Notes under the pieces: model-generated
What the model saw: only the letters and a program-made list of their open reading frames with translations
Told to the model about the DNA's origin: nothing
The model's database searches: none
Position numbers and translations under genes: made by a program
Shown here: piece by piece, positions 47,673 to 57,252 of the stretch
Numbering within the stretch: position 1 is the stretch's first letter
Layout of the letters: every line of letters starts with the position of its first letter
Source of the DNA: Gemmatimonadota bacterium
GTDB taxonomy: Bacteria > Gemmatimonadota > Gemmatimonadetes > Gemmatimonadales > GWC2-71-9
Assembly (NCBI GenBank): GCA_003222055.1
Contig: QHUT01000054.1
Location: 15,022-79,021 of the forward strand
Reading direction: 5' to 3'
Length of the DNA: 64,000 bases

Positions 47673-48643
47673 CGCGCGGGGCCGCTCACGGTCCCCCCTG
47701 TGGCAGCGACCCGGGGCGCGGACCGGCCCGGCGGCAGCCGTCCCGTCTCGAGCAGGCCCCGGTACATGCGCAAGTATTCCTGAGTCATCACGAGGTGTGA
47801 GAAGTGCCGCTCCGCATGCGCGCGGCAGGCGTGCGGGTCCCAGCCGGCCAGGCGGCGGCGCAGCTCCACCAACTCGTCCAGGGTCGTTCCCAATCCGCCG
47901 GTCTCGGCGGATACCAGCTCCGGCAGCGAGCCGCGGGGAGATCCGATGATCGGTGTACCGCTGGCGAGCGCCTCGAGGACGTTCACCGGGCAGGGATCTT
48001 CCCAGCGGACCGGCATCCACAGGCAGCGTGCTCCCGCCAGCAGGTCGCGCTTCCTCGTGCCTCCGACTTTGCCCACGAACTTCACAAAGCGCGAGAGACT
48101 CGGGCGCCATCCGCCCGCGAGTACCAGACGCACGCGACACCGCTTCGCGGCCGCGATGGCCACCTGCCAGCCCTTCACGCTGTGCAATCGGGCCAGGAAG
48201 AGGTCGTAGTCGTCCTTCTGGACGCGGAATTCGTATTCGTCGAGGCGAACGCCGTTGCGCACGAACGCGTCGGTTCCATGACGCCGTGCGTGGTCCTGAC
48301 TGACGCAGATAGTGCGGTCATCGGCCCGCTGCCCGCCGCTCAGGTTTCCGTGCAGCGTCCACACGCTGGGCACGCCGGCTGGAGGGTGTCGAAGCGTGCA
48401 GTGAAAGTGCATGAGGTCGACCGGCTCGCTGACGTAGCGGCGCAGCTCGAACTGCGGCGTCAGCACGTCTTCGGGCGACACTTCGACGACCCGTACGCCG
48501 GCGACGTGACTACCCTTTGGGGCGAGCAGAGTGACCTGGTGACCAAGCTCGATGAGTCCCTGACACAACCACACGACGATGCGCTCCGCGCCCCCGTACT
48601 TCGGAACGGGGAGCCGCACATGATGGAATTGGACGATGTGCAT
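47657..48643 (-). CDS. Glycosyltransferase family 4 (GT-B)
   Basis: MHIVQFHHVRLPVPKYGGAERIVVWLCQGLIELGHQVTLLAP...EALASGTPIIGSPRGSLPELV. It is a paralogue of the next gene. The C-terminal 328 aa of track ORF 47657..48970. Confidence 0.85.
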   Translation of the reverse strand: MHIVQFHHVRLPVPKYGGAERIVVWLCQGLIELGHQVTLLAPKGSHVAGVRVVEVSPEDVLTPQFELRRYVSEPVDLMHFHCTLRHPPAGVPSVWTLHGNLSGGQRADDRTICVSQDHARRHGTDAFVRNGVRLDEYEFRVQKDDYDLFLARLHSVKGWQVAIAAAKRCRVRLVLAGGWRPSLSRFVKFVGKVGGTRKRDLLAGARCLWMPVRWEDPCPVNVLEALASGTPIIGSPRGSLPELVSAETGGLGTTLDELVELRRRLAGWDPHACRAHAERHFSHLVMTQEYLRMYRGLLETGRLPPGRSAPRVAATGGTVSGPARHTST

Positions 48644-48648
48644 GGCCG

Positions 48649-49599
48649 TCAGGCCGGAACGCGTGACGTGGACCTTCCGGCCGGTAGCGTGCCGGTCTCG
48701 AGCAAGTGGCGGTACATGCGCAGGTATTCCTCCGCCATCACCAGGTGCGTGAAGAACCGCTCGGCGTGCGCCCGGCACGCCGCGGGGTCGCGCGTGTGGA
48801 TCTGCTCCGCGGCGGCAATGATCTCTTCCATCGTGTCGCACAGCGCGCCCACGTCGGACGATATCAGCTCCGGCAGCGCGCCGCGTCGCGTGCCCAGCAC
48901 CGGCGTGCCCGAGAGCAGCGCCTCGACGGTGACGAGGCCGAACGGCTCGTCCCATTGCGCCGGGTTCCACAGACAGCGAGCGCGCGCCAGCAGCGCGGCC
49001 TTGGTCGTGCCGTCCACTTCACCGACGTACTGCACCGATCCCGTGAAGCTGGGCCGCCAGCCGCCCGCCACGATCAGGCGGTGCCCGCTGTGCTTCGCGG
49101 CCTCGACCGCCCAGTGATAGCCCTTGGCGCTGTGCAGCTTGCCGAGGAACAGGTCGTACTGCGATACGCGCTTCGGAAACCGGCGGAAGACATAGTCGGC
49201 CGGATCGAGCCCGTTGTACACGAAGGTGTCGCTCTGGTGGCGGCGCGCGTGATCGTGGGACAGAAAGATGCTGTTGGGGGACGGAGGCGCGCCTCCCTTC
49301 AGGTTGCCGTGCACCGTCTGTACCAGCGGCGGGGAGGCGGGCGCGCGGCGCACCGGGAAGTGCACGTGCACCAGGTCGGCGTCACGCGGGACGTACGGCG
49401 CGAGCGCGGCGCCGTCGCCGAACTTGCGGGGCGGCACCGCCACGACCGTCGCCTCCGGGACGCGCGAGCCGGGGGGCGCGAGCAGCGTGACGCGCGCCCC
49501 CAGCGCCGCGAGCCCGCGTACCAGCGCCATGACCACGCGTTGTGGACCGCCGTAACCCTTCGCCGGCAGCGGCTGATGGGAGGCGACCGCGATGTGCAT
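48649..49599 (-). CDS. Glycosyltransferase family 4 (GT-B), tandem paralogue
   Basis: MHIAVASHQPLPAKGYGGPQRVVMALVRGLAALGARVTLLAP...EALLSGTPVLGTRRGALPELI. Confidence 0.85.
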   Translation of the reverse strand: MHIAVASHQPLPAKGYGGPQRVVMALVRGLAALGARVTLLAPPGSRVPEATVVAVPPRKFGDGAALAPYVPRDADLVHVHFPVRRAPASPPLVQTVHGNLKGGAPPSPNSIFLSHDHARRHQSDTFVYNGLDPADYVFRRFPKRVSQYDLFLGKLHSAKGYHWAVEAAKHSGHRLIVAGGWRPSFTGSVQYVGEVDGTTKAALLARARCLWNPAQWDEPFGLVTVEALLSGTPVLGTRRGALPELISSDVGALCDTMEEIIAAAEQIHTRDPAACRAHAERFFTHLVMAEEYLRMYRHLLETGTLPAGRSTSRVPA

Positions 49600-49628: not shown

Positions 49629-50723
49629 ATGCCAGGCCGGTCGCTCACGATCCTGCAGCTGACGCATCAGGGTGGTGGCTCCGGCTCGACGGTGGCGATC
49701 GCGAACCTGAGCCGGCAGCTCGCGCGGCGCGGGCATCGCGTGCTGATCGGCTGCCGGCCCGGCACCATGCTCGCGGGCCTCGCGCGCGACGCGGGGCTCG
49801 AGGTCGTGCCGCTCGACTTCCGCCGACTCGGGCCCCTGGCCACGGCGCTCGACGCCGTGATGGTGCGCGAGGCCGTCGACGTGGCGAACAGCAACGCCAC
49901 CCGCGACCGCCGCGCGCTCACCTGGCTGCGGTGGCGGCGGCGGCTGCCGCGCCCCTTCGTCGTGACGCGCCACACGATGCCCCTCACGCTGGCGCCGGAG
50001 CTGATCGCGGTGGCGCTCTCGGCCGATCGCACCATCGCCGTGAGCCCCGCGGTGGCGCGCGCGCTGCGCCGGCGCCTGCACCCGGGCGCCCGGCTCCGCG
50101 TCGTACCGAACGGCATCGACTGCGAACGGGTCGACGCGCCGCCTTCGCCCGCGGACCTTACCGCCGCGCGCGCGACCCTGGGCGACCTGGCCGGCCGGCC
50201 GGTCGTGCTCGTGCTGGCGCGCCGCAAGGACCAGCACATCCTGCTGGAGAGCCTCGCGGCCTTGCAGCAGCCGGTCGTGGTTGCGTGCGTGGGCATCGAA
50301 GGTGACGCCGAGCTGCGTGCGATCGAGCGGCGCCTGCCGGCGCGCCATCGCGTCGTGTACGTGCCCTTCACCGACCGGCCCCTCGCCTTCGCCCGCCTCG
50401 CGGACGTCTCCGCTCTGCCGTCGCGCATCGAGGGGCTCTCCATCGCGCTGCTCGAGACCATGGCCCTGGGATTGCCCGCGGTGGCCTCGCGTGCCGGGGG
50501 CAACCCGGACGTCATCACGTCGGGAGAGACCGGCGTGTTGGTGCCGCCGCTCGATGCGCTCGGCTGGGCCCGGGCGCTCGAGCGCGTGCTGGCGGATCGC
50601 GAGTTCGCGCGGCGCATCGCGCGGGCCGGGCGAGACCGCGTGCGGCATGAATTCACGCTGGAGCGTGCCGCCGAGCGGACCGAGGCGGTGTACGGCGAGG
50701 CCCTGGAGCGACGGCGCGGTTGA
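49629..50723 (+). CDS. Glycosyltransferase family 4 (GT-B)
   Basis: LTILQLTHQGGGSGSTVAIANLSRQLARRGHRV...EGLSIALLETMALGLPAVASRAGGNPDVI. Confidence 0.85.
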   Translation: MPGRSLTILQLTHQGGGSGSTVAIANLSRQLARRGHRVLIGCRPGTMLAGLARDAGLEVVPLDFRRLGPLATALDAVMVREAVDVANSNATRDRRALTWLRWRRRLPRPFVVTRHTMPLTLAPELIAVALSADRTIAVSPAVARALRRRLHPGARLRVVPNGIDCERVDAPPSPADLTAARATLGDLAGRPVVLVLARRKDQHILLESLAALQQPVVVACVGIEGDAELRAIERRLPARHRVVYVPFTDRPLAFARLADVSALPSRIEGLSIALLETMALGLPAVASRAGGNPDVITSGETGVLVPPLDALGWARALERVLADREFARRIARAGRDRVRHEFTLERAAERTEAVYGEALERRRG

Positions 50724-51895
50724 GTCCGACGCTCCTCCTCGCCCTCAATTTTCCGCCGTTCGGCGGCGGCATCGCCCGCATGATGGGGGAGGTCGCGCTC
50801 CGCTATCCGGAGCACGCCCTGCTGGTTTCCACGGGAACCTGGCCGGGGAGCGACGCCACCGACCCGCGGGTCCCCCAGACCGTCGACCGGGTGGCGGTGG
50901 GCGCGAAGCGGCTGCGCACCCTGAACGGGCTATTCCGCTGGACCCGGCGCGCCGCCACCCTGGCACGCGGGACGGACCCGGGATTCGCCTGGTGCGACGA
51001 GATCAAGCCCGCGGGGTACGCGGCGGCCTGGCTGCACGCCCGCCGCGGTCTCCCGTTCGGCGTGCTGGCGCACGGGGCGGACTTCCTGCTGCTCCAGGCG
51101 AAGGCACGACGCTCGCGCTTCAAGGGCTGGACGGCGAGGCGGATCCTCGAGCGCTGCGCGGTGGTCGTCGCCAACAGTCGCTGGACTGCGGACCTCGTCC
51201 GAGGGGTCCTCGAGTCCCTCGGCTGCCACGCCCTCGCCGCCGACGTGCGGGTCGTCCACCTCGGGACCACTCCCTCTCGTTTCCGGCCGGGAATCGATCC
51301 GGCGCCGGTGCGGCACAAGTATGGGCTCGACGGAGGCCCGTGGCTGCTCACGGTCGCCCGGCTCGACTTCCACAAGGGGGTCGACACGGTCATCCGTGCG
51401 CTCCCCGCAATCCGGGACGCCGTTCCGGGGACGCGCTATGCCATCGCGGGGATCGGAAGCCGGCGCGGCGCGCTCGAAGCGCTCGTCGCGGAGCTTGGTC
51501 TGGGCGACGCGGTTCGCCTGCTCGGCTTCGTGCCCGACGAGGAGCTGCCGGCGCTGTACAACGCGGCCGACCTGTTCGTGCTCGCCTCCCGGCGACACGA
51601 CCTGCTGGTGGAGGGATTCGGGATCTCGTGTGTAGAGGCATCCGCGTGCGGCCTTCCGGTGATCGGCAGCCGCTGCGGGGGCATTCCCGAGGCCATCCTC
51701 GAGGGGGAAACGGGGCTCCTCGTCGAGCCGGAGGATCCGGCCGCGGTGACGGCGGCGACGGTGCGGGTGCTCGAGGACGAGGCGCTGCGCCACCGCCTGG
51801 GCGCCGCCGGGCGCGCCGCGGTCGAGGGCTACTACAACTGGGACCGGGTCACGGCCGATCTGGTCCGGATCGACCGGGAATTCCGGCGACCGTGA
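50720..51895 (+). CDS. Glycosyltransferase family 4 (GT-B)
   Basis: LLLALNFPPFGGGIARMMGEVALRYP...EGFGISCVEASACGLPVIGSRCGGIPEAI. 4-nt overlap with the upstream gene. Confidence 0.85.
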   Translation: MSPTLLLALNFPPFGGGIARMMGEVALRYPEHALLVSTGTWPGSDATDPRVPQTVDRVAVGAKRLRTLNGLFRWTRRAATLARGTDPGFAWCDEIKPAGYAAAWLHARRGLPFGVLAHGADFLLLQAKARRSRFKGWTARRILERCAVVVANSRWTADLVRGVLESLGCHALAADVRVVHLGTTPSRFRPGIDPAPVRHKYGLDGGPWLLTVARLDFHKGVDTVIRALPAIRDAVPGTRYAIAGIGSRRGALEALVAELGLGDAVRLLGFVPDEELPALYNAADLFVLASRRHDLLVEGFGISCVEASACGLPVIGSRCGGIPEAILEGETGLLVEPEDPAAVTAATVRVLEDEALRHRLGAAGRAAVEGYYNWDRVTADLVRIDREFRRP

Positions 51896-51902
51896 CCGTA
51901 GA

Positions 51903-53096
51903 TTGTTCTCGATGACCACGCTGCTCCTGGCGCAGGACTTCCCTCCGATGGGCGGCGGCATCGCCCGGTTGCATGGCGAGCTGGCCAAGCGGTTTCCTCG
52001 TGGCGACCTCGTCGTCTCCACGCCGGCGGATCCCGATGCGTCGGAGGTCGACGCGGGGTTTGCGGCCGCCGTCGATCGTCTCCCGATCGGCGTACGACGC
52101 ACCAAGACGCTGCCGGCCGTCCTCTTCTGGTCGCGGCGCGCGGCCAGCCTGGCGCGCCAGCATCGCGTCCGCTTCGTGCATTGTGGCAACGTGAAGCCGG
52201 CGGGGTATCCGGCCCGCTGGGTCCACGAGCGCCTGCACATTCCCTACGGGATCTTTTTCCACGGAGCCGACCTGCTCAGCGAGCAGCACAAGATCCGGCA
52301 CTCGCGCCTCAAACGCCGCACGGCCCGCATCATTTTCGGCGGGGCGGCGGTCTTGATGACCAACAGCGCCTGGACCCGCGACCTCGCGCTCTCGCTGCTC
52401 GGCGATTTGGGCCTCGACGGGCACGGCCGGCGGCTCCGCGTCGTGCACCTGGGCACGGACCCGACGTACTTCCGTCCCGGTGTCGATGCGCGCGCGCTGC
52501 GTGACAAGTTCGACCTCCCCGACAACGGCACCCGCTGGCTCGTGACCGTCGCCCGCCTGCAGCAGCACAAAGGCATGGACACGGTGATCGAGGCCCTGCC
52601 GGCCATCCTCGAGCGTGAGCCGGACGTGCGTTACGCGGTTGCCGGAACCGGTCCCGACCGCGAGCGGCTGGAGAAACGGGCACAGCAGCTGCGCCTCGGC
52701 GACCGCGTGCGCTTCCTGGGCGGCGTCGGCGATCGGGACCTGCCGGCGTTCTATAATCTCGCGTCCGTGTACGTCGGCGCGTCGCGGCGCGCCGAGCGGC
52801 TGGGCGTGGAGGGGTTCGGGATCTCGCTGGTGGAAGCCTCCGCGTGCGGGCTGCCGGTGGTAGCGGGCGACTCAGGCGGCGTGTCGGACGCCGTGCGCGA
52901 CGGCGAGACGGGCATTCTCGTGCCTCCCGAGGAGCCAGCGGCCATCGCCGACGCCATCTGCCGTCTGCTGGCGGACCCCGCGGCGGCCAAACGAATGGGA
53001 CAGAACGGCCGCCGGGCGGTGGAGACCTACTTCAACTGGGACCGCGTGGTGCGCGATCTCCGCGACATCGAATCCCAGGCCGTGTCCGGCGCTTGA
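51903..53096 (+). CDS. Glycosyltransferase family 4 (GT-B), tandem paralogue of 50720..51895
   Basis: LLLAQDFPPMGGGIARLHGELAKRFP...EGFGISLVEASACGLPVVAGDSGGVSDAV. Confidence 0.85.
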   Translation: MFSMTTLLLAQDFPPMGGGIARLHGELAKRFPRGDLVVSTPADPDASEVDAGFAAAVDRLPIGVRRTKTLPAVLFWSRRAASLARQHRVRFVHCGNVKPAGYPARWVHERLHIPYGIFFHGADLLSEQHKIRHSRLKRRTARIIFGGAAVLMTNSAWTRDLALSLLGDLGLDGHGRRLRVVHLGTDPTYFRPGVDARALRDKFDLPDNGTRWLVTVARLQQHKGMDTVIEALPAILEREPDVRYAVAGTGPDRERLEKRAQQLRLGDRVRFLGGVGDRDLPAFYNLASVYVGASRRAERLGVEGFGISLVEASACGLPVVAGDSGGVSDAVRDGETGILVPPEEPAAIADAICRLLADPAAAKRMGQNGRRAVETYFNWDRVVRDLRDIESQAVSGA

Positions 53097-53139
53097 GCCG
53101 TCCTGTGGTTCCCGGGCGTCCGGTCTGACGTCTGGTGCG

Positions 53140-54102
53140 ATGGACGACATCCGCTGGTTCGCTCCGGAAGGGTTCTTCGCGCTCGTGGTGCCGCGCCTGC
53201 GGCAGCGGGGCGTCGCGATCGCGCTGGATGGCGACCGGCCCGCGCGACTCGCGATCGCGATGGACGCGCGGGTCGCGGCGCGAGCGTACGCGTACGCGGC
53301 GCGGGCCCGGTGCCCACTGATCCATTACCTGTGGGATCTTCCGCCCTGGCGGTTGGGGCGAGGCCGACACGACTGGGTCTGGCACGTGTTCGGGCGGTAT
53401 CTGCGGGTCCCGCGTTTGGGACGGCGTTACGCGGAACGACCGGGGTACTACAGCCGGCTACGCTTCGTCGCGTCGCACGCCCGGGAGGTGTGGGTGCCGA
53501 GCGCGCAGACCGCCGCCAGCGTGCGGGAGCATTGGGGAATGCAATGCCGCCGGGTGCCGTTCTGCTTCGATTCGGATCGGTTCACCCCCGCGCCGGCGGC
53601 GCGGGCGCGCGGCCTGCTCAGCGTATCCCGTCTGACCGCTCACAAGGACCACGCCGCCGTGATTCGCGCCGCGGCGCGGTTCGTCCCCGAGCTGCCGGTG
53701 CGGATCGTGGGCAGCGGTCCCGAACGCGCCGGGCTCGAGCGGCTGGCGGCGGACCTCGGCGTGGCGTGCACGATCGAGTCCGGGCTGTCGGACGACGACA
53801 TGGTGATGGCCTACCGTAGGGCGGAGGTGGTGGTCTGCCCCAGTCGGTTCGAAGGCTTCGGGCTCACGCCGATGGAGGCCATCGCGTGTGGGAGGCCGGT
53901 GGTCGCGTCCGACATTCCGCCGCACCGGGAGTTTCTGGGGACGGCCCCCCACTTTTTCACAGTGGACGACGACGACAGTCTCGCGGCGGCCATCGCCGCA
54001 GCGCGCGCTGGCCCCGTCCCGACCGACGCGGTGTTGCGCCCGCTGCGCATCGAAGCGGCCGTGGAGCGCTTCAGCGCCGGGCTCGCGCCTTATCTCGGCT
54101 AA
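53140..54102 (+). CDS. Glycosyltransferase (GT-B, GT4-like)
   Basis: SVSRLTAHKDHAAVIRAAARF...PSRFEGFGLTPMEAIACGRPVVASDIPPHREF. Confidence 0.75.
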   Translation: MDDIRWFAPEGFFALVVPRLRQRGVAIALDGDRPARLAIAMDARVAARAYAYAARARCPLIHYLWDLPPWRLGRGRHDWVWHVFGRYLRVPRLGRRYAERPGYYSRLRFVASHAREVWVPSAQTAASVREHWGMQCRRVPFCFDSDRFTPAPAARARGLLSVSRLTAHKDHAAVIRAAARFVPELPVRIVGSGPERAGLERLAADLGVACTIESGLSDDDMVMAYRRAEVVVCPSRFEGFGLTPMEAIACGRPVVASDIPPHREFLGTAPHFFTVDDDDSLAAAIAAARAGPVPTDAVLRPLRIEAAVERFSAGLAPYLG

Positions 54103-55181
54103 CCCGCAGCGTCAGCGGCCTTGGGCGCGGCCGCGGGGCGCGCGCTGATCGCGTACGTGGGACAATGCCGGATGAACTCGCCGTCGATGGGCGACCATTC
54201 CTGTTCGGGTCGCGTGACGACCGCCTTGCCTTGCGCGTCGAGCACGAACATCCCCGGGGGTGCCTGCACCAGGCACGCCCCGCACCCGATGCAGCGTTCC
54301 CGCTGGACCCGGATGGTCACGGCGCGGCGCGGATAGACGCCCGCGTCCCCCGGGGCCGGCCACTCGGCCGGGCGATCGAGCCCGGCAACGGTGGCGCGAT
54401 ATCCTTCCTCGACGATCTCGCGCAAATGGTCGAAGTCGAAGGCCGAAATGTGCTCGACGCGCGGGTGGATGTAATAGATCGGCGGCGTGGTCCACTCGCG
54501 CATTCGCAACTCGAGCAGCGATTGCATCGCGATCTCCGTGGCGCGCGCGAACACCGCCGAGAAGCCGTCCTCCTGTGTGTCCGCGCGAAACGCGTTCGAC
54601 GCGGACACGTCGATCGCGAGGATCACGTCGGCGCCCAGGATGCGTGCCGTGCCGACCGGAAGGTTGTCCACGGTGGCGCCGTCCACGTAGAAGCGCCCCC
54701 GGATCTCGCGCGGCGGCAAAAAGCCGGGAATGGCGCACGAGGCGAACACGGCGTCTTTCACCGGCGCCTCGTCCAGCCCCTCGAGCCCCCAGAAGACCTG
54801 CATCCCCGAGTTCACGTCCACGGTGTTCACGATGAGCGGAAGGTGCAGGTCTTGGAAGGTGGCGTCGCCGACGAGGCGGTGGATCAGGAGGTCGAGGGGC
54901 TCGCGCCGGAACAGCGCGGGGGAGCGCATTCGCTTGAAAGCCATGTCGGCGTGGGCGACCACGAACACGTCCTTGCGGCGCAGCTTGACCGCGACATCGC
55001 GCAGCTCGGCGATGCTCCGCCCCGCGGACCAGGCGGCGCCCACCAACGCGCCCACGCTCGAGCCGACGATCTGCGCCGGCACGAGACCGCGCTCGGTGAG
55101 CGCCTGCAGCACGCCGATGTGGGCGACGCCCTTCATGCCGCCGCCGCCCAACACGAGGGTGAATCGCGTTTGGCTGTCCAC
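54099..55181 (-). CDS. Patatin-like phospholipase with a C-terminal single-cluster ferredoxin-like domain
   Basis: LVLGGGGMKGVAHIGVLQAL (GxGxxG), VGSSVGALVG (GxSxG) and a DGA/DGG-type Asp region. The C-terminus is RCIGCGACLVQAP...RHCPTYAI (CxxCxxC...CP). Confidence 0.75.
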   Translation of the reverse strand: MDSQTRFTLVLGGGGMKGVAHIGVLQALTERGLVPAQIVGSSVGALVGAAWSAGRSIAELRDVAVKLRRKDVFVVAHADMAFKRMRSPALFRREPLDLLIHRLVGDATFQDLHLPLIVNTVDVNSGMQVFWGLEGLDEAPVKDAVFASCAIPGFLPPREIRGRFYVDGATVDNLPVGTARILGADVILAIDVSASNAFRADTQEDGFSAVFARATEIAMQSLLELRMREWTTPPIYYIHPRVEHISAFDFDHLREIVEEGYRATVAGLDRPAEWPAPGDAGVYPRRAVTIRVQRERCIGCGACLVQAPPGMFVLDAQGKAVVTRPEQEWSPIDGEFIRHCPTYAISARPAAAPKAADAAG

Positions 55182-55228: not shown

Positions 55229-56068
55229 GTGATCCCCAGCCCCGCGCTACTCATGTACCACCGCGTCGTGCGCAGTCGTTGGACTCTGACCGGTCTCGCC
55301 GTCGTCGTCGCACTCGCGCTCGCTGCGCTGGCGGCGCCGCTCATCGCGCCGGGCGATCCCTATCACGGACACCTCGCCGCCGCGTTGCAGGCGCCGTCGC
55401 GCGCCTTCCCGCTCGGCACCGACGCGCAGGGACGCGACGTCCTGAGCCGGCTGCTGTTCGGCGCCCGGTTGTCGCTCGCCGTCGGGCTCGCGAGCCAGGT
55501 GATCGCCCTCGCGGTCGGGCTCACGCTGGGTCTGGCGGCGGGCTTCTACGGGCGCTCCGTGGACGCGGTGGTGATGCGCGCCGCCGATGTGACCCTCGCC
55601 TTCCCGTCCCTCCTCCTGCTCATCGCCGTCGCCGCCGCCGTGAAGCCCACGCTGCCGGTCGTGTGCGTGGTGATCGGCATCGTGGGCTGGGCGGGCATGG
55701 CCCGCCTGGTGCGCGCCCAGGTCCTCGTGGTGCGTCGTCTCGACTACGTCCACGCGGCGCGCGCGTTCGGCGCCTCCGACGCACGCCTCGCCGCGCGCCA
55801 CGTGCTCCCCAACGTGCTGGGCCCGGTGATCGTCGCCGCCACCCTCGGTGTCGGTGGTGCGATCATGGCCGAAGCCGCGCTCTCGTTCGTGGGGCTGGGC
55901 GCGCCACCGCCCACGCCCTCGTGGGGCGCGATGGTGGCCGAGGGCCGCGACCTGCTGCGGGTGGCGCCGTGGGTGTCGCTCTTTCCCGGGCTCGCGATCG
56001 GCCTGACTGTGCTAGCCGTCAATCTCATCGGCGACGGCTTACGTGACGCCCTGGATGTGCGGGCATGA
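55229..56068 (+). CDS. ABC peptide/nickel transporter permease (DppC/OppC-like)
   Basis: LAAPLIAPGDPY...GTDAQGRDVLSRLLFGARLSL...YVHAARAFGAS. Confidence 0.85.
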   Translation: MIPSPALLMYHRVVRSRWTLTGLAVVVALALAALAAPLIAPGDPYHGHLAAALQAPSRAFPLGTDAQGRDVLSRLLFGARLSLAVGLASQVIALAVGLTLGLAAGFYGRSVDAVVMRAADVTLAFPSLLLLIAVAAAVKPTLPVVCVVIGIVGWAGMARLVRAQVLVVRRLDYVHAARAFGASDARLAARHVLPNVLGPVIVAATLGVGGAIMAEAALSFVGLGAPPPTPSWGAMVAEGRDLLRVAPWVSLFPGLAIGLTVLAVNLIGDGLRDALDVRA

Positions 56069-57252
56069 CCGACATCGCCTACCACCCGACGCGCCTGCGC
56101 GCCTTGCGCGACCAGTTCCGCGCGCTGCGCGCCGCCGAGTTTCCCTGGACCGCGGACACCGTCTATTTGAACAACGCGTCCATCGGGCCCATCCCGGAGC
56201 GCACCCGCCGCGTACTCGACGAGTTCACCGCCAAGCGCACCGCCCCACACCTCCTCCCGGACCGCGAGCTGCAGGCGGGGCTGCAGGCGGCGCGCGCGGC
56301 GGTCGCCCGCCTGCTCAACGCGGAGCCGGCCGAGATCGCGCTCGCCACCAACACCAGTCACGGGCTGAACCTCGCGGCGCGCGCCCTGCCGCTCAAGCGC
56401 CGCGACGTGGTGCTCGTGTCCGATCGCGAGTTCCCTGCCAACGTGTACCCGTGGCTGCTGCTCAAGAAGCAGGGGATCGAAGTGGAGCTCGCTCCGTGCG
56501 CCGGCGAAGGCTGGCCCGACGAGGACTATCTGGTCGAGCGTCTGCATGACCCGCGCGTGCGCGTGCTCGCCGTCTCGTTCGTCCAGTTCGCCAACGGGTA
56601 CCGCGCAGACCTGGGGCGCCTCGGGGCCGCCTGCCGTGCCAACGGGACGTTTCTCGTGGTGGATGGGATTCAGGGCGTAGGAAACTCGACCCTCGACGTG
56701 CGCGAGACCCCCGTGGACATCCTCGCGTGCGGCGGCCAGAAGTGGCTGCTCTCCCCCTGGGGCTCGGGCTTCGTGTACGTGCGGCGCGAGCTCATCTCGG
56801 CGCTCGAGCCCGCCGTCACCGGCTGGATGGCGTTCGAAGGGACCGACGACTTCTCCCGCCTCACCGAGTACAACCCCACCTTCCGCGCCGACGCCCGCCG
56901 CTTCGAAATGGTCACCCTGCCGTTCCAGGACTTCCACGGCATGACGACATCAGTCGGCATGCTCGCCGAGCTGGGCGTCGACGACATCGCGCAGTACGCC
57001 CGTACACTGCACGAGCCGGTGCTCCACTGGGCCGAGGAGAACGGCATCCGCGTCGTCTCACCCTCGGACGATGCGCACCGCTCGGCCATCGTCTGCCTCG
57101 CACCCCAGCATCCCGCCGAGGCGTATCACGCGCTCAAGCGCGCGCACGTCGTCTGCTCGTTGCGCGAGGGCGCCATCCGCCTGGCTCCGCATTGCTACAA
57201 CACCGTCGAAGAGATGGAGCGGGTGGTCGACGTACTCGACCAGTTAGAGTAA
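56065..57252 (+). CDS. Class V aminotransferase-fold PLP enzyme (cysteine desulfurase/selenocysteine lyase-like)
   Basis: VYLNNASIGPIPERT...TNTSHGLN...DGIQGVG...GGQKWLLSPWGSGF. 4-nt overlap with the dppC-like stop. Confidence 0.8.
   Translation: MTDIAYHPTRLRALRDQFRALRAAEFPWTADTVYLNNASIGPIPERTRRVLDEFTAKRTAPHLLPDRELQAGLQAARAAVARLLNAEPAEIALATNTSHGLNLAARALPLKRRDVVLVSDREFPANVYPWLLLKKQGIEVELAPCAGEGWPDEDYLVERLHDPRVRVLAVSFVQFANGYRADLGRLGAACRANGTFLVVDGIQGVGNSTLDVRETPVDILACGGQKWLLSPWGSGFVYVRRELISALEPAVTGWMAFEGTDDFSRLTEYNPTFRADARRFEMVTLPFQDFHGMTTSVGMLAELGVDDIAQYARTLHEPVLHWAEENGIRVVSPSDDAHRSAIVCLAPQHPAEAYHALKRAHVVCSLREGAIRLAPHCYNTVEEMERVVDVLDQLE

Follow-up and report, generated by a model that had tools for sequence, protein, structure and literature searches.

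The window, by which we mean the whole 64,000-nucleotide stretch of Gemmatimonadota DNA that was analysed, carries on its reverse strand an open reading frame for a protein of 360 residues, which the ORF list and the sequence place between a GTG start and a TAG stop (Table 1). The GTG start fits the length of the homologues, those at 74–98% identity likewise having 360 residues. As the preliminary description had stated, the gene sits alone between a glycosyltransferase cluster and an orphan permease. At its 3′ end it converges with a GT4 glycosyltransferase gene, the two overlapping by 4 bp, and at its 5′ end a lone OppC-type ABC permease gene runs divergently; the nearby genes comprise glycosyltransferases, the ABC permease, and a PLP enzyme. 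With a GC content of 69.5%, against 70.7% for the window, and a GC3 of 0.90, the gene has the base composition of its host genome. Scans for promoters and terminators around it gave no signal above chance.

The protein joins a patatin-like phospholipase to a single-cluster ferredoxin domain. This had been proposed from the sequence at the outset, and profiles, matches to solved structures, two AlphaFold models searched with Foldseek, and deep conservation all agree with it, far beyond what chance would give. The analysis shows two intact domains, conserved ligands, and a module on which purifying selection is strong. The gene is an uncharacterised version of a known kind of enzyme: full-text literature searches found no study of a patatin–ferredoxin pairing, only chance co-occurrence of the terms, the names of family members are generic in every source, and no NCBIfam model reaches its own cut-off for the protein. 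The initial view that the pairing is not characterised therefore holds, but in sequence databases the pairing is common and forms a large family.

Table 1. Features of the fusion gene, in window coordinates
Feature	Residues	Position	Strand	Basis
Whole gene, patatin–ferredoxin fusion		54099..55181	-	ORF list, sequence, equal-length homologues
Patatin-like phospholipase domain	~5–280	54342..55169	-	Pfam PF01734, PlpD match, Foldseek
Oxyanion-hole Gly-rich motif, G-G-G-G-M-K-G	12–18	55128..55148	-	sequence; G12–G15, M16, K17, G18 invariant in 59 homologues
Nucleophile elbow, G-S-S-V-G, with Ser42 the predicted catalytic Ser	40–44	55050..55064	-	sequence; homologue conservation
Catalytic Asp motif D-G-A, predicted second half of the Ser-Asp dyad	167–169	54675..54683	-	sequence; invariant in 59 homologues
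Inter-domain linker	271–289	54315..54371	-	invariant columns, dN/dS 0.34, pLDDT 77–82
Single-cluster ferredoxin module	290–348	54138..54314	-	Fer4_15, 1rof match, domain model, Foldseek, dN/dS
C297-I-G-C300-G-A-C303, three predicted [4Fe-4S] ligands	297–303	54273..54293	-	sequence; invariance; ferredoxin alignment
C340-P341 ("CP" motif), fourth predicted cluster ligand	340–341	54159..54164	-	sequence; invariance; ferredoxin alignment
Variable Ala/Pro-rich C-terminal tail	349–360	54102..54137	-	dN/dS, conservation, pLDDT

The patatin domain

The N-terminal domain is recognised by the Pfam Patatin profile (PF01734) over residues 9–179, scoring 118.5 bits where the gathering score is 27.7 (E 5.3e-34). 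The passenger domain of PlpD from P. aeruginosa (5fqu/5fya) is the best match in both sequence and fold for residues 5–280, as evidenced by an E value of 2.8e-27 against 5fqu and by a TM-score of 0.82 on the target when the predicted full-length AlphaFold model (pLDDT 78, pTM 0.77) is compared with 5fya in Foldseek. The same search with this predicted structure also returned CapV, CapE, and potato patatin among the fold matches. The GxGxxG and GxSxG motifs of the first reading are in the sequence as G12GGGMKG18 and G40SSVG44. Within the nucleophile elbow none of 59 homologues departs from S42, V43, or G44, its G, S, and G are also invariant in 14 distant fusions, and 119 of 120 distant fusions keep both GxSxG and DG[GA]. 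Since the oxyanion motif, Ser42, and Asp167 are all invariant, the protein is predicted from its sequence to be catalytically competent.

PlpD and the RssA/YchK group share with the fusion protein the GGGxxG, GxSxG, and DGA motifs and the Ser-Asp dyad; the Fe-S module is found in the fusion protein only, and PlpD and RssA are without it. PlpD is a secreted type Vd autotransporter with a POTRA domain and a β-barrel, whereas the fusion protein has neither. Indeed, a secreted PlpD-like or Tat-exported protein was rejected as a candidate: no transmembrane segment, signal peptide, or Tat motif was found in the protein, its maximal 19-residue Kyte–Doolittle hydropathy is 1.49, its N-terminus is not hydrophobic, and it ends at residue 360. 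The top NCBIfam match is RssA (NF007623, E 4e-28), but at 98.4 bits against an equivalog cut-off of 272 the protein is RssA-like only, and an RssA orthologue was likewise rejected. The best explanation of these data is a soluble, cytoplasmic patatin-like acyl hydrolase of the phospholipase/lysophospholipase type, with a predicted Ser42–Asp167 dyad.

The ferredoxin module

The preliminary description had read CIGCGAC...HCP at the C-terminus as the signature of small [3Fe-4S]/[4Fe-4S] ferredoxins, and had named beforehand a lack of profile support for a ferredoxin fold as a reason to give that reading up. The signature is in place as C297/C300/C303/C340-P341, and the profile search favours the ferredoxin reading. 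With 27.3 bits, Fer4_15 (PF13459) passes its gathering score of 22.4 (E 6e-6), and it is precomputed on most homologues; Fer4_13 (PF13370), which matches residues 292–345, stays below its threshold with 19.4 against 24.5 bits. When the C-terminal 87 residues are searched in isolation, they match T. maritima ferredoxin (1rof/1vjw) with E 1.1e-6 and D. africanus FdI with E 4.9e-6, and the CxxCxxC...CP motif aligns to the same motif in 1rof and 1dwl. A domain-only AlphaFold model has a core pLDDT of 87–94, and Foldseek superposes it on 1vjw with a TM-score of 0.83 (1.8 Å, 41% identity) and on 8amp with 0.81 (2.0 Å). Almost all of the 50 matches listed for this model are Fe-S ferredoxins or ferredoxin-like subunits. 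Taken across the single-cluster ferredoxins of T. maritima (Fd, 1vjw/1rof), D. africanus (FdI, 1fxr/1dwl), M. tuberculosis (Fdx, 8amp), and P. furiosus (Fd, 1siz), the fold is the same (TM 0.71–0.83, 1.8–3.3 Å), the cysteines match position for position, and identity reaches 41% over 58 columns. These known ferredoxins are free-standing electron carriers of 55–80 residues, whereas here the ferredoxin is the C-terminal domain of a hydrolase.

The fusion protein contains five Cys residues, the four canonical ligands and an invariant C149 in the patatin domain. CxxCxxC...CP is present in 118 of the 120 closest homologues, the two exceptions being one truncated sequence and one that is seemingly error-ridden. 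No substitution of the four ligand Cys occurs in 59 close homologues, in 12 relatives at 34–77% identity, or in the 14 distant fusions, which have 27–39% identity with one another. By what is established for this ferredoxin class, four Cys in this motif favour a [4Fe-4S] cluster over the [3Fe-4S] type, which refines the original assignment. We strongly infer that the module binds one [4Fe-4S] cluster through C297, C300, C303, and C340; ligated fully by these four residues, the cluster would have no open iron site. The old ligand positions of a second cluster are occupied by A307, W329, I332, and E335, and by this comparison of sequences one of two ancestral cluster sites has clearly been lost in the lineage of the window. 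In some single-cluster ferredoxins a Cys pair at the lost second-cluster site forms a disulfide; the alignment shows this pair replaced by A307 and I332 in the fusion protein.

The module also has the lowest dN/dS of the whole protein. Over 76 orthologues the value is 0.13 for the module, 0.23 for the patatin core, 0.34 for the linker, and 0.57 for the tail. The conserved residues of the linker are W274-P275, G281, P284, and R286; in the tail the majority-residue frequency is 0.52 and pLDDT is <50. Residues 76–91 are likewise conserved, although the model gives them low confidence.

Relatives and genomic context

A genome scan, with an alignment of 6 sequences as the query, found the single-cluster form of the fusion in at least 264 GTDB species genomes, mainly Gemmatimonadales, and a second clade of fusions occurs in Gemmatimonadaceae. 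In Planctomycetota, Spirochaetota, and Chlamydiales many two-cluster versions occur. The family is large, with at least four named lineages and both single-cluster and two-cluster forms. The two-cluster fusions, from metagenome-assembled genomes (for example P0292, P0282, P0316, and P0172), have the same architecture in 350–400 residues, the same catalytic motifs as the window protein, and four invariant cluster-I Cys residues, and they are equally uncharacterised. They differ in keeping the second site, as CxxCxxCxxxCE plus CxxDxxCxxxCP in 112 of 120 and as the classic double CxxCxxCxxxCP in 4 of 120; their identity to the window protein is 29–36%, and they fall on a different branch of the rough patatin tree. 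The second-cluster positions differ freely between clades, with four Cys, CxxDxxC, or no ligands. Patatin-only relatives at 48–50% identity adjoin the fusion clade, which indicates modularity, as expected of an accessory regulatory domain. In the rough neighbour-joining tree of the patatin region, whose branches are long and unsupported, the window clade groups with these patatin-only relatives, away from the two-cluster clades.

The neighbourhood, including TyrRS, PBP1, and the glycosyltransferases, is syntenic across 77 genomes, which marks it as stable and housekeeping rather than as a variable island. No neighbouring gene was common to the three distant fusion clades sampled, and this suggests that the fusion is a self-contained unit. 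Neither the neighbours nor the other context examined gave a pointer to oxidative-stress or iron regulons. In 72 of 77 Gemmatimonadales loci the fusion gene has as a neighbour the divergent class-V PLP enzyme (56065–57252), which resembles SufS/CsdA and was considered as a dedicated Fe-S supply partner. This candidate was rejected: 17 of 70 orthologues carry F, L, or V at the position that corresponds to the catalytic Cys of SufS, the enzyme scores far under every desulfurase cut-off, and it is missing from the three distant fusion contexts sampled. The synteny also takes in TyrRS and PBP1, and it therefore probably reflects shared ancestry rather than function.

What the cluster may do

As a rule, cytoplasmic patatin enzymes are kept inactive, and a cofactor or signal that works through an accessory region is needed to turn them on. 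CapV/CapE (CBASS), ExoU, and VipD, in which the patatin domain is controlled in this manner, provide a conceptual model for a gated lipase; their activators are cyclic nucleotides (cGAMP for CapV), ubiquitin (ExoU), and Rab5 (VipD), and none is an Fe-S cluster. The fusion gene is unlike them in that it does not reach the cut-offs of these families and lacks any defence or secretion context. When an Fe-S cluster with full Cys ligation sits on a non-redox protein, it is commonly a sensor, as in FNR, NsrR, IscR, and B. subtilis PurF, and the state of the cluster sets activity or stability. The likeness of the fusion to FNR, NsrR, IscR, SoxR, and PurF is one of analogy, namely a Cys-ligated cluster on a protein whose chemistry needs no electrons; there is no relation in sequence or fold, and the outputs of these sensors are transcription or protein turnover, not lipid hydrolysis.

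Reasoning from these analogies, we tentatively favour, with slightly less than even confidence, a reading in which the built-in [4Fe-4S] module couples cytoplasmic lipase activity to redox, oxygen, or iron status. The ferredoxin module would be both the sensor and the regulator of the lipase. Its cluster might remain whole, be oxidised, or be lost under O2, reactive oxygen species, NO, or a lack of iron; which of these states it is in would alter the fold or docking of the module, this change would switch or tune lipid hydrolysis, and membrane-lipid turnover would then track the redox or iron status of the cell. As to direction, our guess, again by analogy, is that the holo form may restrain the lipase and that damage to the cluster may release it. 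Ferredoxins of Bacillus and M. tuberculosis are among the top Foldseek matches of the module, and since electron carriers that are stable in air belong to this class, lability of the cluster is not a given.

That a hydrolase has no use for electrons also fits a purely structural cluster. We think it unlikely, if well worth weighing, that the cluster merely stabilises the C-terminal domain for folding, oligomerisation, or docking to a membrane or partner and carries no physiological signal, as has been argued for the clusters of some DNA glycosylases. The full ligation by four Cys with no open iron site is consistent with such a role, as is the presence of stable ferredoxins among the nearest structural matches; purifying selection over the entire module would suit a structural or docking surface equally, and a stress-related gene context was not seen in the loci examined. 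However, an Fe-S cluster is a costly means of stabilising some 60 residues, close patatin-only relatives fold without the module, and the variation of cluster II by clade, from four Cys to an Asp-containing site to none, resembles a tuning of cluster chemistry more than a simple scaffold. Electron transfer appears improbable. Here the module would shuttle electrons for a redox partner that lies in the membrane or modifies lipids, or for a redox step coupled to acyl hydrolysis, for example in the handling of oxidised lipids. The module is indeed most like true carrier ferredoxins, including P450 partners (8amp, 8amq, 4id8, 1vjw), the two clusters kept in other clades are the classic arrangement of an electron wire, and a C-terminal ferredoxin fusion has a precedent in CYP51–ferredoxin (6mcw), a weak and non-significant match at E 0.15. 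Against this, in none of the clades examined is an oxidoreductase, P450, or desaturase conserved next to the fusion gene, the patatin Ser-Asp mechanism has no need of electrons, and the loss of the second cluster in the window lineage shortens a wire rather than builds one. The patatin domain could, in such an arrangement, serve as a tether of the module to its redox partner.

The two remaining explanations are both very improbable. A CapV-like, membrane-destroying lipase of anti-phage defence or abortive infection, with a module that senses infection, would account for the weak likeness to CBASS effectors (NCBIfam CBASS_lipase, 50.1 bits; PADLOC PDLC00758, 58.6 bits) and for the CapV and CapE structures among the fold matches. 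The cut-off of that NCBIfam model (NF041079) is 200 bits, however, no cyclase or other defence gene lies nearby, and PADLOC shows a generic effector likeness with no partner. The syntenic housekeeping neighbourhood and the host-like base composition also speak against it, and both scores and context led to the rejection of an effector of this kind. A degenerate ferredoxin remnant that binds no metal could be read from the loss of one ancestral cluster site and from the sub-threshold Fer4_13 score, but at identities as low as 27% the four remaining ligands do not vary, the dN/dS of the module is the lowest in the protein, and its fold is predicted confidently and matches holo-ferredoxin structures.

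The reading of the module as a sensor can be extended to the family. Patatin–ferredoxin fusions may form a widespread, unrecognised class of one-protein Fe-S sensor-effectors, in which a [4Fe-4S] cluster, joined in other phyla by a second, Asp-ligated and possibly convertible cluster, would read oxygen, oxidants, NO, or iron and directly switch a cytoplasmic phospholipase. We regard this wider proposal as possible but rather doubtful.

Bacterial patatin-like lipases are potentially self-destructive, and their control is understood for few, mostly toxins and anti-phage effectors. Here a catalytic domain is joined to a highly conserved Fe-S module across many genomes of Gemmatimonadota, Planctomycetota, Spirochaetota, and Chlamydiales, and natural variants with two, one, or no clusters permit direct comparison. 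Should the cluster prove to be purely structural, the family would remain a clear and easy target, a single soluble protein of ~360 residues with obvious spectroscopic and enzymatic read-outs. If the cluster gates activity, the fusion would provide a direct post-translational link from redox or iron status to membrane-lipid turnover, and a new type of output for Fe-S sensors. Finally, if the fusions are indeed a class of sensor-effectors, redox stress would be tied to lipid remodelling or controlled self-lysis with no transcriptional step.

Domain structure of the fusion protein

The preliminary description had placed a gene for a patatin-like phospholipase with a C-terminal ferredoxin motif at 54099–55181, and the open reading frame and all of the named motifs are present in the DNA at exactly these coordinates, as listed in the table below. 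In Pfam, the encoded protein matches Patatin (PF01734, E = 5.3e-34) over residues 9–179 and clears the gathering score of Fer4_15, a 4Fe-4S single cluster domain (27.3 vs 22.4 bits). A match to Fer4_13 over residues 292–345 falls short of the threshold (19.4 vs 24.5 bits). A search of solved structures with the whole protein aligns residues 5–280 with the patatin domain of P. aeruginosa PlpD (5fqu, E = 2.8e-27) and residues 289–347 with T. maritima ferredoxin (1rof/1vjw) and D. africanus ferredoxin I. When only the C-terminal 87 residues serve as the query, the E-values for these two ferredoxins improve to 1.1e-6 and 4.9e-6, respectively, and the cysteines of the CxxCxxC...CP motif align one-to-one with those of both. 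The assignment had been staked in part on profile searches, and these, together with the solved structures, support a ferredoxin fold for the C-terminus.

Modeled in full with AlphaFold2 (pLDDT 78, pTM 0.77), the protein matches PlpD with a TM-score of 0.82 on the target, and small ferredoxins are matched locally. When the C-terminal module is modeled alone, the core has a pLDDT of 87–94, and Fe-S ferredoxins or ferredoxin-like subunits make up nearly all of the 50 Foldseek matches listed. T. maritima ferredoxin (TM 0.83, 1.8 Å, 41% identity) is among the best of these, along with M. tuberculosis Fdx (TM 0.81, 2.0 Å) and B. thermoproteolyticus ferredoxin. Profiles, structures, and models therefore bear out the reading of a patatin-like phospholipase and a single-cluster ferredoxin domain on one protein. 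Residues 76–91 (AHADMAFKRMRSPALF, nt 54909–54956) are near-invariant in homologues yet are modeled with a pLDDT below 50; one possibility is that this stretch moves as a lid or has a regulatory role.

Coordinates of the fusion gene, its motifs, and neighboring genes
Feature	Position (nt)	Strand	Remarks
Fusion gene	54099–55181	-	360-aa ORF, GTG start, TAG stop
Patatin motif G12-G-G-G-M-K-G18	55128–55148	-	read from DNA
Patatin motif G40-S-S42-V-G44	55050–55064	-	read from DNA
Patatin motif D167-G-A169	54675–54683	-	read from DNA
Ferredoxin motif C297-I-G-C300-G-A-C303	54273–54293	-	read from DNA
Ferredoxin motif C340-P341	54159–54164	-	read from DNA
Four consecutive GT4 glycosyltransferase genes	49629–54102	+	
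Lone OppC/NikC-type ABC permease	55229–56068	+	divergent, 47 bp from fusion gene
Class-V PLP enzyme, SufS/CsdA-like	56065–57252	+	next after permease, divergent from fusion gene

The base composition is that expected of a native coding gene (GC 69.5% against 70.7% for the window; GC3 0.90). Of the protein's five cysteines, four are the predicted ligands and the fifth is C149, invariant in the patatin domain. A sequence scan finds no signal peptide, Tat motif, or transmembrane segment. The protein should thus reside in the cytoplasm, the site of Fe-S cluster assembly.

Conservation and distribution of the fusions

The four ligand cysteines are invariant in 59 close homologues, in 12 relatives at 34–77% identity, and in 14 fusions that are only 27–39% identical to one another. 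The full CxxCxxC...CP motif occurs in 118 of the 120 nearest database clusters, the exceptions being one truncated and one apparently error-ridden sequence. In a codon-based analysis of 76 orthologous genes, dN/dS is lowest in the ferredoxin module (0.13), followed by the C-terminal part of the patatin fold (0.18), the patatin core (0.23), the linker (0.34), and the tail (0.57). As the most constrained region of the protein, the module is not a relic. Invariance in homologues extends to the catalytic motifs of the patatin half, and the lipase is expected to be active.

The 120 closest clusters (74–98% identity) derive from Gemmatimonadales metagenome-assembled genomes (MAGs) and carry generic names only, either "patatin-like phospholipase family protein" or "NTE family protein". 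When each GTDB species was represented by one genome, relatives were confirmed in at least 264 genomes; among the 80 best records, 79 have titles with Gemmatimonadales, Gemmatimonadaceae, Gemmatimonadetes, or Gemmatimonadota, and the title of the other reads only "uncultured bacterium". A second, large and deep clade of single-cluster fusions (proteins P0398–P0516) shares ∼46% identity with the window protein, and the members that have names belong to Gemmatimonadaceae. One MAG, SMAG_U13252, yields two copies of the gene (loci L033 and L054, at 85% and 70% identity with the window protein), which are either paralogues or the product of a mixed bin.

An exhaustive search of 50%-identity representatives extends the full-length fusions down to 29% identity, and a profile built from these distant fusions matches, at E ≤ 1e-10, at least 991 clusters. 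Patatin is combined with Fer4 families in all of the top 120, whose source names include Planctomycetota, Spirochaetota, and one Chlamydiales MAG. These distant fusions (P0283–P0397, e.g., locus L082, 6001–7137) have a two-cluster domain. In 112 of the 120, it reads CxxCxxCxxxCE ... CxxDxxCxxxCP, so that Asp takes the place of the second cluster-II ligand; the P. furiosus ferredoxin has an Asp at this position that goes with 4Fe/3Fe interconversion. Four others have the classic pair of CxxCxxCxxxCP motifs, three combine CxxCxxCxxxCP with CxxDxxC, and one lacks the downstream CP motif. The cluster-II ligand positions are A307, W329, I332, and E335 in the window protein, whose module therefore looks, from sequence, like a former two-cluster domain that has lost cluster II. 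Cluster I is the universal constant across the whole set of fusions. In a rough tree of the patatin region, the window clade groups with patatin-only relatives, apart from the two-cluster clades, which fits either multiple fusion origins or repeated loss of the module.

Gene neighborhood

The gene does lie between a glycosyltransferase cluster and an orphan permease, as had been described. The convergent GT4 gene overlaps it by 4 bp at the stop codons (54099–54102; TAA on the plus strand, TAG on the minus), and no terminator-like site was found between the two. GT4 gene content differs between related genomes, and the last gene (53140–54102) is no farther than 3 kb from the fusion gene in only 16 of 77 loci. 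Beside the cluster, a 437-aa ORF at 47804–49117 (+) has no Pfam match at E ≤ 0.001 and, with the sequence this GC-rich, is perhaps not a real gene.

The permease has no ATPase, substrate-binding protein, or OppB partner among the neighboring ORFs examined; its gene overlaps that of the PLP enzyme by 4 bp. Within 3 kb of the fusion gene, the permease is found in 65 and the PLP enzyme in 72 of 77 Gemmatimonadales loci, and in ∼10 related loci the permease is missing and the PLP enzyme is immediately next to the fusion gene. Since TyrRS and PBP1 are likewise syntenic, common descent seems a better account of the arrangement than an operon. The PLP enzyme was considered as a dedicated cysteine desulfurase and rejected: it scores far below every desulfurase cut-off (114 vs 475 bits), and in 17 of 70 orthologues F, L, or V replaces the Cys aligned with the catalytic Cys of SufS (C377, "PHCYNT"). 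Conservation does extend to the PLP lysine motif GGQKW. Three distant fusion genes, including those of Planctomycetota and Spirochaetota, have no neighbor gene in common with the window or with one another, and the fusion protein appears to be a self-contained unit.

Possible role of the predicted iron–sulfur cluster

The patatin hydrolase and the four-Cys ferredoxin module, the latter under strong constraint, are both intact and lie on one cytoplasmic polypeptide. CxxCxxC ferredoxins of this class carry 4Fe, whereas in 3Fe forms the second Cys is replaced, and we thus strongly infer that the module binds one [4Fe-4S] cluster. Our tentative proposal, somewhat short of probable, is that the state of this cluster would control lipase activity. 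A Ser-Asp hydrolase needs no electrons; the cytoplasmic patatin enzymes ExoU, VipD, and CapV are restrained via accessory regions until a signal arrives; and fully ligated Fe-S clusters on non-redox proteins are commonly sensors, as in FNR, NsrR, IscR, and PurF. By analogy, these points suggest control by the cluster. Among the fusions, cluster II differs by clade, with four Cys, an Asp-containing set, or none, which also looks like tuning of cluster chemistry.

A purely structural cluster is a less likely alternative to such control. True electron transfer with a putative partner is more doubtful still, as no conserved oxidoreductase neighbor was found at the loci examined. An anti-phage effector is very improbable: scores are far below the family cut-offs (for the CBASS effector CapV, 50 vs 200 bits), partner genes are absent, and the gene sits in a stable housekeeping locus. 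Equally remote is a metal-free relic, which the conservation data contradict.

The catalytic half has all the sequence and fold features of the patatin family and is RssA/PlpD-like, but it misses the RssA equivalog cut-off (98 vs 272 bits), and the POTRA domain and barrel of type Vd PlpD are both absent. The C-terminal half is a single-cluster ferredoxin domain in all respects except that it is not free-standing. As a sequence architecture the pairing is not new, being common in sequence databases, where it has precomputed Pfam annotation. The earlier view that it is uncharacterised holds, in that no NCBIfam model reaches its own cut-off for this protein and no paper describing or testing such a fusion was found in full-text searches of literature largely outside the subscription journals. 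The window fusion is an uncharacterised form within known patatin and ferredoxin families. With less confidence than we attach to control of the lipase by cluster state, patatin–ferredoxin fusions could represent a widespread class of one-protein Fe-S sensor-lipases.
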